Positions 9,061 to 10,160 of a stretch of DNA of 64,000 bases are shown here, piece after piece. Made by a program: the position numbers and the translations under genes. The notes beneath the pieces were generated by a model, which was not told the DNA's origin, searched no databases, and saw only the letters and a program-made list of their open reading frames with translations. Source of the stretch: Escherichia phage vB_EcoM_OE5505; the sequence record NC_054926.1; one strand, 5' to 3'. How positions within the stretch are numbered: position 1 is the stretch's first letter; each line of letters opens with the position of its first letter.

Positions 9061-9294
9061 TTATTTTTTACGAAAAATTGATTTATTTTCTGCTGCCCAT
9101 TTTTCAATAACTGCAGCAGGACCAGTAACAACAATTTTATCACCGTAATCTTCTGCGGCGAGTTGACCGAAATTATCTAATGCATCACGAAGAACTCCAT
9201 GAGGCATTTCACCCATTTTATCTTTCTTGCCAGTGTAAATAAACTCAACTTTTACATCAGCAGTTTCAGCAATAAATTCTTGGTAAGTTTTCAT
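9061..9294 (-). CDS. Capsid-targeted internal protein (IPI-like)
   Basis: Starts MKTYQEFIAE (canonical T4 IP capsid targeting sequence) at second ATG; 77 aa. Confidence 0.8.
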   Translation of the reverse strand: MKTYQEFIAETADVKVEFIYTGKKDKMGEMPHGVLRDALDNFGQLAAEDYGDKIVVTGPAAVIEKWAAENKSIFRKK

Positions 9295-9319
9295 TTTGAT
9301 TTCCATTTGGTTTTGTTTT

Positions 9320-9382
9320 GATAGGGTAATAGTATCACAACTAAAACCCTATGTAAACAACTTTGTGAAATTATTTTAAATC
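9320..9382 (-). repeat. Cassette junction repeat (hairpin plus 33-bp 3-prime-end module, copy B)
   Basis: 33 bp 9350-9382 identical to 9681-9713; preceded by hairpin ATAGGGT...ACCCTAT. Confidence 0.65.
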
Positions 9383-9628
9383 TTCTAATCGTTTCTTCAT
9401 CTTAGAACCATTTTTAGCAATTTCTCCTGCATCGGAGCATAATGCTAAAAGTGCTTTAACTTTAGTTTGGTCTCCTTTAAAAGATGAAGGATCGACCGCA
9501 GCAGCAAGTTCTTTAATACGAGAGAAAAGACGCTCAGCTTCAGCTAAAGCCATTCCAAGCTTTACTTCCATACCGTGGGAAGATTCAGTGATAGTAGTTT
9601 TTGTAGCAAACTCTTTGAAAGTTTTCAT
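9371..9628 (-). CDS. Internal-protein-like protein
   Basis: 85 aa, starts MKTFKEFATK (CTS-like), ends EDLK like 57B; preceded by AGGAAA RBS. Confidence 0.7.
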   Translation of the reverse strand: MKTFKEFATKTTITESSHGMEVKLGMALAEAERLFSRIKELAAAVDPSSFKGDQTKVKALLALCSDAGEIAKNGSKMKKRLEDLK

Positions 9629-9650
9629 TTTTATTTTCCTAATTAATTTT

Positions 9651-9713
9651 GATGAGGTAATAGTATCACTACCTCATCAGTATGTAAACAACTTTGTGAA
9701 ATTATTTTAAATC
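9651..9713 (-). repeat. Cassette junction repeat (hairpin plus 33-bp module, copy A)
   Basis: Hairpin GATGAGGTA...TACCTCATC with compensatory changes vs copy C; 33-bp repeat covers 57B stop and 3-prime UTR. Confidence 0.65.
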
Positions 9714-10160
9714 ATCTGCCCAATCGAGTTTAAGAGGCTCTTTGTATTCACGGTCAAGTACAACCGGAATTTGTACATCACCGCTAAATGATAAGGGCCC
9801 AACATTATAAGACAATGTTATATGCGGTGTGTAATCATCAAAATCGTGTGTAGCACCTAGTGCCCGCGCATACATGTGTCGACAGCGCAGATATTCAGAA
9901 TCTAGCACAAGTACAAGAGTCGATCCATCTTGTGTTTTCCATACTTCTAAATGTCCAGAAGAAGCTACTTCAAAACTTCCACTCGATGGAACATATGGAA
10001 CATTTACTCTTGAATAACATATAGTCGAATGAATTTTTTCTCTAGGAACTGGATTAGGAACACGTAAAGAGCGCTGGAGTTCTTCCAGCGCGTCAAGTGT
10101 TAATTCTGAAAACTTAGCTGCTACATAAAGACCCGTTGAAAAGTCTTTAAATTCCATCAT
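9702..10160 (-). CDS. 57B: 57B, 2H-phosphoesterase family (Acb1-type anti-CBASS cyclic-nucleotide phosphodiesterase)
   Basis: 152 aa; two H-x-T/S motifs (HSTI, HITL); position between IP genes and 57A as in T4. Confidence 0.8.

Follow-up and report, generated by a model that had tools for sequence, protein, structure and literature searches.

The closest described relatives of the locus considered here are the internal protein (IP) genes of the T-even phages and the anti-CBASS gene that accompanies one of them in phage T4. Delivery into the phage head is illustrated by T4 IPIII: its 10-residue leader suffices to bring foreign proteins into the head of T4, with targeting involving residues 4 and 7 and processing involving residues 8 and 10, and the prohead protease gp21 cuts after the motif L/I-x-E (PMC9026906). 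The structure of mature IPI* (2JUB) begins at residue 20, right after ITE19. With respect to function, IPI* is an inhibitor of the E. coli CT596 GmrSD enzyme (PMC3012670), and IPIII is needed on ECOR17 and is active when the cell itself produces it in leaderless form (Srikant 2022, PMC9391042). In later work, Ip1, Ip2, and Ip3 were each shown to inhibit a single GmrSD subtype, different for each protein, without any cross-protection (Silas 2025). The neighbor of ipI in T4, gene 57B, is the founding Acb1; its product was demonstrated experimentally to be a cyclic-oligonucleotide phosphodiesterase with the catalytic tetrad H44, T46, H113, and T115, and the position of acb1 beside ipI was pointed out as what is expected of an anti-defence island (Hobbs 2022, PMC9117128). 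Finally, promoter/stem-loop elements at both polymorphic IP loci were described by Repoila in 1994, as recorded in Arbiol 2010, where these IP elements are treated as analogues, not homologues, of the PeSL cassettes and are proposed to restrict IP shuffling to the two loci (PMC2839356).

The window analysed here is a stretch of 64,000 nucleotides from Escherichia phage vB_EcoM_OE5505 (NC_054926.1). Its region 8400–10400 is 99.8–100% identical to many Tequatrovirus genomes, including those of Yersinia phage PYps5T, Escherichia phages YUEEL01 and Pinarejo, and Shigella phage JK08, and is matched by 784 phage records. In the part of the window around 57B, ip5, and ip6, every gene lies on the minus strand (Table 1), and the three ORFs on which the original prediction was built are all present where it placed them. 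Plus-strand ORFs that overlie these genes (e.g. 9199–9321, 9588–9710, 9860–10024) were set aside, since they are short, run antisense to conserved genes, and carry no annotation in the relatives. The genes ip5 and ip6 are situated between 57B and trna.4, as is ipI in T4, and are flanked by three spacer repeats. The locus is IP locus 1 of a Tequatrovirus, a hyperplastic slot extending from 57B to trna.4 that carries here the T6 allele acb1-ip5-ip6.

Comparisons across relatives illustrate how variable the content of this slot can be. It holds ipI in T4, Ip5-Ip6 in T6, JK08, and the window, and Ip5-Ip7 in T2, whereas in VR20 (Gaprivervirus) it holds Ip9, a second protein annotated as an internal head protein, a hypothetical ORF with a leader, and Ip6. 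The arrangement 57B-Ip5-Ip6-trna.4 of T6 (MH550421) agrees with that of the window in gene order, orientation, and the flanking genes 57A, 57B, and trna.4–trna.2, with no difference of substance inside the locus; the tRNA array beyond trna.2 does differ, in that the window has two inserted ORFs there and lacks tRNA-Gln and tRNA-Thr. The T4 island 57B-ipI-trna.4 shares with the window the slot itself, its flanks, the 57B-proximal spacer, and similar Ip5/IPI leaders, but the T4 slot is filled by one cassette, that of the GmrSD-CT596 inhibitor ipI, and the slot of the window by two unrelated cassettes. T4 IPII and IPIII, inhibitors of GmrSD-ECOR21 and GmrSD-ECOR17, are encoded at the second IP locus, e-denV, and in their mature domains they bear no relation to Ip6; even so, they carry the same leader as Ip6, and the packaging and injection logic proposed below would be shared with them.

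The state of that second locus varies as well. It is empty in PYps5T, and in ACG-C40-like phages it carries an IP of 157 aa, and the start codon of this IP falls on window position 1. PYps5T is 100% identical to the window over 5900–10400 and differs from it at the left end, which rules out equating the whole window with this phage; for the same reason, its empty e-denV locus is not transferable to the genome from which the window comes.

Table 1. Features at and around IP locus 1 in the window (window coordinates).
Feature	Coordinates	Strand	Basis or detail
Gene 1 (dNMP kinase)	10387–11112	−	
Late-promoter motif TATAAATA	10743–10750	−	Inside gene 1; nearest upstream one on this strand
57A	10157–10387	−	
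57B = acb1	9702–10160	−	Pfam PF23474, PDB 7T26, T4 57B identity
Early promoter + stem-loop before ip5	9650–9688	−	Promoter 9688 to 9660, stem-loop 9650–9679
ip5	9371–9628	−	phrog_3499; T6/T2 identity
Ip5 leader MKTFKEFATKTTITE	9584–9628	−	T4 IPI type, ends in gp21 motif I-T-E15
Second early promoter + stem-loop, before ip6	9321–9357	−	Promoter 9357 to 9329, stem-loop 9321–9352
ip6	9061–9294, probable extent (ORF to 9306)	−	phrog_8111; T6 identity
Ip6 leader MKTYQEFIAE	9265–9294	−	Ends in gp21 motif I-A-E10
Third, weaker promoter/stem-loop copy, before trna.4	9020–9060	−	Stem-loop 9020–9051
trna.4	8817–9002	−	
trna.3	8419–8817	−	
trna.2	8129–8416	−	tRNA array beyond

The proposal that 57B encodes a T4-type Acb1 with the two H-x-T/S motifs of 2H phosphoesterases was borne out in full. 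The 152-aa product, whose start codon overlaps the 57A stop by 4 nt, matches PF23474 (Acb1) at E 2.7e-60, scoring 202.7 bits where the curated cut-off is 27 and spanning all 144 profile positions (1–144), and also matches the Acb1 crystal structure 7T26 (E 4e-62). The two motifs are H44-S-T46 and H113-I-T115, and the protein is 100% identical to that of T4 (NP_049750). By this identity, the activity demonstrated for the T4 enzyme can be carried over to the window protein, which on sequence grounds is an Acb1, i.e. a 2H phosphoesterase predicted to degrade CBASS cyclic oligonucleotides.

Both neighbors of 57B have established names. Ip5, with a precursor of 85 aa, matches phrog_3499, an 'internal head protein' family (E 1e-49), and is 100% identical to the Ip5 proteins of T6 and T2; the name is already in use in UniRef for relatives in T2 and RB70, and ip5 is annotated in T6, JK08, and RB32. 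Ip6, as the ORF 9061–9306, matches phrog_8111, an 'internal virion protein' family (E 1e-52), and is 99% identical to T6 Ip6; ip6 is annotated in JK08, T6, and RB32, and the UniRef relatives are named Ip6. The ATG at 9306, which would yield an 81-aa product, has no Shine-Dalgarno sequence, whereas the ATG at 9294 is preceded 8–10 nt upstream by GGAA and opens the conserved leader MKTYQEFIAE, and for these reasons translation of ip6 probably starts at 9294 and gives a protein of 77 aa.

Both proteins begin with leaders of the T4 type. That of Ip6 is the same as the T4 IPII and IPIII leaders, as read from the T4 translations, at 10 of 10 residues. When the Ip5 start MKTFKEFATKTTITE is aligned with the T4 IPI start MKTFKEFTSTTTPVSTITE, the former proves IPI-like, of the form MKTFKEF...TITE. 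Aromatic residues stand at positions 4 and 7 of each leader, and each ends in an L/I-x-E site for gp21, ITE15 in Ip5 and IAE10 in Ip6; Ip5 has two further candidate internal gp21 sites, LAE30 and IKE40, both within helix 1 of its predicted structure. A six-frame translation of the window contains the strict motif MK[TS][YF]x[EQ]F[IL]xE at 3 places, and 200 shuffles contain it nowhere, so that the leader matches are not due to chance. The original prediction had taken both neighbors of 57B for capsid-targeted IPs and had described the product of 9371–9628 as IP-like with a CTS-like N-terminus; at the level of sequence, the leaders, the gp21 motifs, and the phrog_3499 match uphold this. Its third premise, that T4 IPI is a restriction inhibitor encoded beside acb1, agrees with the published GmrSD inhibition (PMC3012670) and with the acb1-ipI island (Hobbs 2022). 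From these cleavage sites, mature Ip5 is predicted to comprise residues 16–85 (7.5 kDa, with a calculated pI of 9.2 and 10 Lys among 70 residues) and mature Ip6 residues 11–77 (7.4 kDa, pI 6.5, net charge 0).

The original prediction overlooked the fact that conserved promoter/stem-loop repeats set each IP gene apart as a cassette of its own. One copy of this repeat, about 70 nt long (family D3), lies upstream of each of ip5 (9647–9717, 71 nt), ip6 (9316–9386), and trna.4 (9018–9088). A promoter scan identified TTTACA-17-TACTAT with a TG extension in the first two copies, and all three copies form hairpins of about 13 bp that overlap the −10 hexamer, with folding energies of −17.4 kcal/mol (z −3.6) before ip5, −19.4 kcal/mol (z −3.8) before ip6, and −19.5 kcal/mol (z −4.2) before trna.4. 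The 57B-ip5 spacer does not differ from the T4 57B-ipI spacer, the other copies align with the T4 ipI-trna.4 spacer, and as a set the repeats are almost identical to the spacers of T4; the array of IP cassettes ends distally at the copy upstream of trna.4. The hairpins are not followed by a U-tract and the spacers gave no call of an intrinsic terminator, so that a role of the hairpins as terminators of this type is not supported, and an Rfam search of the spacers returned no RNA family. The PeSL cassettes of RB49/phi1-type phages likewise place a repeated early promoter together with a stem-loop at the flanks of small accessory genes, for which cassette shuffling has been proposed. The likeness ends there: the IP elements use T4-type early promoters and AT-richer stems without polyG/polyC, the stem in the window overlaps the −10 hexamer and is without a U-tract, and the window spacers lack the PeSL combination of a sigma-70 consensus promoter with an adjacent GC-rich GGGG...CCCC terminator stem-loop.

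The timing of transcription deserves comment. A pattern search found no late-promoter motif TATAAATA in the ip spacers, and therefore the late synthesis needed for packaging would have to come from read-through or from a long-lived early product. The window contains 23 matches to the pattern where 10 would be expected, and the match inside gene 1 (Table 1), if it acts as a late promoter, could supply late read-through transcripts of 57A, 57B, ip5, and ip6. One might argue instead that Ip5 and Ip6 are not packaged at all but are ordinary early cytoplasmic anti-defence proteins that have kept an ancestral leader, given that each gene has its own early promoter with no late promoter in the spacers and that leaderless IPIII functions from inside the cell (PMC9391042). 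We consider this very improbable: the Ip6 leader is that of IPIII, which is sufficient for the packaging of foreign proteins; the Ip5 leader has kept F4, F7, and the ITE site of T4 IPI; and T4 ipI has an identical upstream spacer, yet IPI is packaged. Moreover, the leader is conserved while the bodies behind it differ completely, and its retention in front of wholly different bodies points to selection on the leader itself.

The account that we favor, and hold to be probable, is that the locus is a T6-type IP locus 1 whose leader-packaged, injected Ip5 and Ip6 block host nucleases and whose cassettes are exchanged by way of the spacers. According to this proposal, the leaders would direct the Ip5 and Ip6 precursors into the prohead core, where gp21 would cut them off after E15 of Ip5 and E10 of Ip6, and the mature proteins of about 7.5 kDa would be packed and injected with the DNA, so as to be in place ahead of all phage gene expression. 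In analogy to Ip1–Ip3, each would then bind and stoichiometrically block one specific first-line host nuclease or sensor; the nuclease in question would attack sugar-modified hmC DNA and would lie outside the set of GmrSD variants assayed to date. Homology for swaps of IP cassettes within and between the two IP loci would be supplied by the repeated promoter/stem-loop spacers. No published virion proteomics for Ip5 or Ip6 was found in the accessible literature. The genes and their anti-defence neighborhood have already been published (1994, 2010, 2022, 2025), and the sequence of the window adds nothing beyond T6 and hundreds of deposited genomes; thus, the original reading of the locus as a compact anti-defence neighborhood is supported but not new. 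The locus is nonetheless a textbook hotspot of the phage arms race, in which an enzyme that destroys the CBASS signal is joined to pre-made inhibitors, putative in the case of Ip5 and Ip6, that are delivered with the DNA.

The mature bodies offer few clues of their own. Searches of Pfam, NCBIfam, and PDB sequences with Ip5 and with Ip6 gave no match; a profile search of 1.84 billion representative proteins with Ip5 returned three clusters, all of the same family; and a word-indexed search returned 5 proteins for Ip5 and 11 for Ip6, all close relatives except one partial match, with every named protein among them coming from a T4-like phage. An AlphaFold2 model of Ip5 (pLDDT 71) is a two-helix hairpin with long helices 17–44 and 54–84, for which a BFVD structure search found nothing below E 0.5, and the model of Ip6 (pLDDT 81) has a generic ferredoxin-like alpha/beta fold. 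Mature Ip5 and Ip6 have no significant similarity in sequence or fold to the GmrSD inhibitors IPI*, IPII, and IPIII. Neither model resembles IPI* or suggests a function, and a functional reading of the folds was rejected. The description of the Ip5 body as unrecognisable is accordingly right insofar as it has no homologue of known function, but the body belongs to a named family, Ip5, with members in 493 phage records.

Such bodies might suggest that Ip5 and Ip6 are mainly structural, Lys-rich head fillers that neutralise DNA charge or aid packaging or ejection without a specific host target. Mature Ip5 is indeed basic, the lysines of T4 internal proteins were found by solid-state NMR to touch DNA phosphates (PMC3012670), and no target of Ip5 or Ip6 has been found so far. 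We nevertheless judge this explanation unlikely, in view of several opposing observations. Mature Ip6 has no net charge. The two bodies share neither sequence nor fold, but each of them is conserved, with a dN/dS of 0.14 for Ip6 against the VR20 allele, i.e. between genera, showing that Ip6 is under purifying selection at that distance. Their presence, absence, or replacement among close relatives is how an accessory gene in an arms race behaves, and not a generic counter-ion. Finally, T4 Ip1–3 seemed equally 'structural' before their targets were discovered.

Both proteins are very common. Searches by tblastn with the mature bodies found Ip5 in 493 and Ip6 in 229 of 50,697 phage records, and both occur in many T4-like phages that are candidates for therapy; identification of their targets would help the prediction of host range. 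The Ip5 records comprise 267 with at least 90% identity (with at least 99% in 230) and 226 with less than 60%, the latter being of the RB69 (Mosigvirus) type with about 38–54% identity (52–54% among the matches listed). The RB69-type relative is encoded at e-denV, the second IP locus, which indicates that the Ip5 family has moved between the loci. RB69 DNA is described as carrying arabinosyl-hmC, not glucosyl-hmC (PMC6024577), and from the presence of Ip5 relatives in such phages it follows that the Ip5 target may not depend on the glucose moiety.

As to the identity of those targets, the challenge of defence-system libraries with phage deleted for each IP gene that was suggested with the original prediction has partly been carried out in the literature, in that ip4-10 were expressed and assayed against 8 active GmrSD variants, and no reproducible inhibition resulted (Silas 2025). 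The same study reported that T6 is restricted by GmrSD-ECOR21 and GmrSD-ECOR17. T6 encodes both Ip5 and Ip6 and is restricted all the same, so that the analogy with GmrSD inhibitors is without direct support for these two proteins; on the assumption that laboratory T6 corresponds to the GenBank record, we infer that Ip5 and Ip6 do not neutralise these two enzymes. Hence, it is conceivable, though in our estimation doubtful, that Ip5, Ip6, or both are injected inhibitors of a first-line defence other than a GmrSD-type enzyme, with another family of modification-dependent nucleases, or a sensor acting at or just after DNA entry, as candidates. The negative GmrSD panel and the restriction of T6 by two GmrSD systems speak for such a target, as does the occurrence of one Ip5 family in both glucosyl-hmC (Tequatrovirus) and arabinosyl-hmC (Mosigvirus) phages. 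Against it, all three characterised T-even IPs target enzymes of the GmrSD family, the active, testable GmrSD subtypes numbered just 8 out of many, and there is no positive evidence for another target. Were this reading true, Acb1-Ip5-Ip6 would constitute an island directed at three separate immune systems, and with Ip5 a T-even internal protein would for the first time have a target of a new class.

Leader-like N-termini also were encountered elsewhere. Two paralogous ORFs in the region between e and the tRNA genes begin with IP-like leaders, MKTYAEFLTE at 4650 for the ORF 4088–4650 and MKSYTQFLNE at 5249 for the ORF 4776–5249. Both belong to phrog_2280, a family of unassigned role; in relatives the ORFs are intact, with 187 and 157 aa, and annotated 'hypothetical', whereas in the window each has an apparent single-base frameshift, around 4340–4350 and 5140–5150, respectively. 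An exact late promoter at 5289–5296 precedes the upstream phrog_2280 copy. The two phrog_2280 ORFs are not in either of the loci that are held to contain all IP genes (PMC2839356). The start of T4 gp61.1, MKTFKEFIKE, is leader-like as well.

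An N-terminus resembling the capsid-targeting leader of the T-even internal proteins (IPs) was found in the window outside both canonical IP loci, at the start of the minus-strand ORF at 4088-4650 (see table), where Y4, F7 and the prohead-protease motif L-T-E10 are all present. In this genome the ORF is broken into two, 4330-4650 and 4088-4333, by the lack of one A from an A-run near 4345, a frameshift that may be genuine or may be a homopolymer sequencing error. With the missing A put back, the reading frame encodes a 187-aa protein that is 100% identical to the products of intact genes annotated as hypothetical proteins and that matches phrog_2280, a family of unknown function. 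Relatives with at least 85% identity occur in 163 Tequatrovirus records, and among the matches listed from this set, none of 40 carries an internal-protein annotation. The 187-aa protein is a candidate for a packaged protein that has so far gone unrecognised.

Coordinates of features in the window and in comparison phages (L013, T4; L008, Yersinia phage PYps5T; L010, RB69)
Feature	Position	Strand	Remarks
IP-type early promoter element, further copy	56-91		immediately downstream of gene e
Gene e	90-584		
phrog_2280 ORF with IP-like leader	4088-4650	-	leader MKTYAEFLTE then AAKL
Paralogue of ORF 4088-4650	4776-5249	-	leader MKSYTQFLNE then AVLNEASS
T4 late promoter motif, exact, TATAAATA	5289-5296	-	upstream of ORF 4776-5249
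Non-coding stretch	5300-5640	-	between ORF 5634-5984 and the phrog_2280 genes
Protein ORF, 161 aa	6532-7017		between tRNA-Met and tRNA-Ser
Protein ORF, 210 aa	7410-8042		between tRNA-Leu and trna.2; weak HNH match, E 0.005
T4 gene 61.1	L013 1467-1631		54-aa product, starts MKTFKEFIKE then D
PYps5T gene 61.1	L008 43245-43409		product starts MKTYKEFIKE then D
RB69ORF127c, Ip5 relative	L010 1738-2019		46% identity across the entire protein

The neighbouring paralogue is also frameshifted, in this case by one T too many after GGTAAA (near 5148), and its counterpart in Shigella phage JK08 is intact and codes for 157 aa. The late promoter motif upstream of it comes immediately after a GC-rich hairpin, and related hairpins at 4046, 4732 and 5290 flank both paralogues. 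The combination of an IP-like leader with late expression, as predicted from the promoter motif, would be consistent with a head-internal protein. Farther upstream lies the non-coding stretch, at whose equivalent position T4 encodes rnaC and rnaD, two small stable RNAs; an Rfam search of 5300-5640 returned nothing at the gathering threshold.

Another IP-like leader forms the N-terminus of gp61.1 in T4 and PYps5T, with the site I-K-E10. Gene 61.1 adjoins the primase gene within the dmd/tifA/adfA 'anti-TA island', and we know of no report that its product is packaged.

RB69ORF127c, a relative of the 85-aa precursor Ip5, has a divergent leader (MKTYMNF...LNE) and is located at the e-denV locus, not beside 57B, which shows that one IP family has moved from one IP locus to the other and has passed between phages differing in the sugar on hmC. 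In the phage studied here, the e-denV locus starts just beyond the left edge of the window: ACG-C40-like phages are 100% identical to positions 1-140, and the start codon of their 157-aa IP (MKTYQEFITE...) has its first base at the equivalent of position 1. In PYps5T this second locus is empty, with e directly adjoining denV.

Finally, the tRNA array at 6003-8042 is broken up by two protein ORFs, which are probably homing-endonuclease insertions comparable to T4 segB. A Pfam search with the 161-aa product gave no match. Compared with the array of JK08, that of the window lacks tRNA-Thr and tRNA-Gln, exactly where the two ORFs sit, and differs further in carrying tRNA-His; only 4 records have at least 80% of this arrangement in common with the window.
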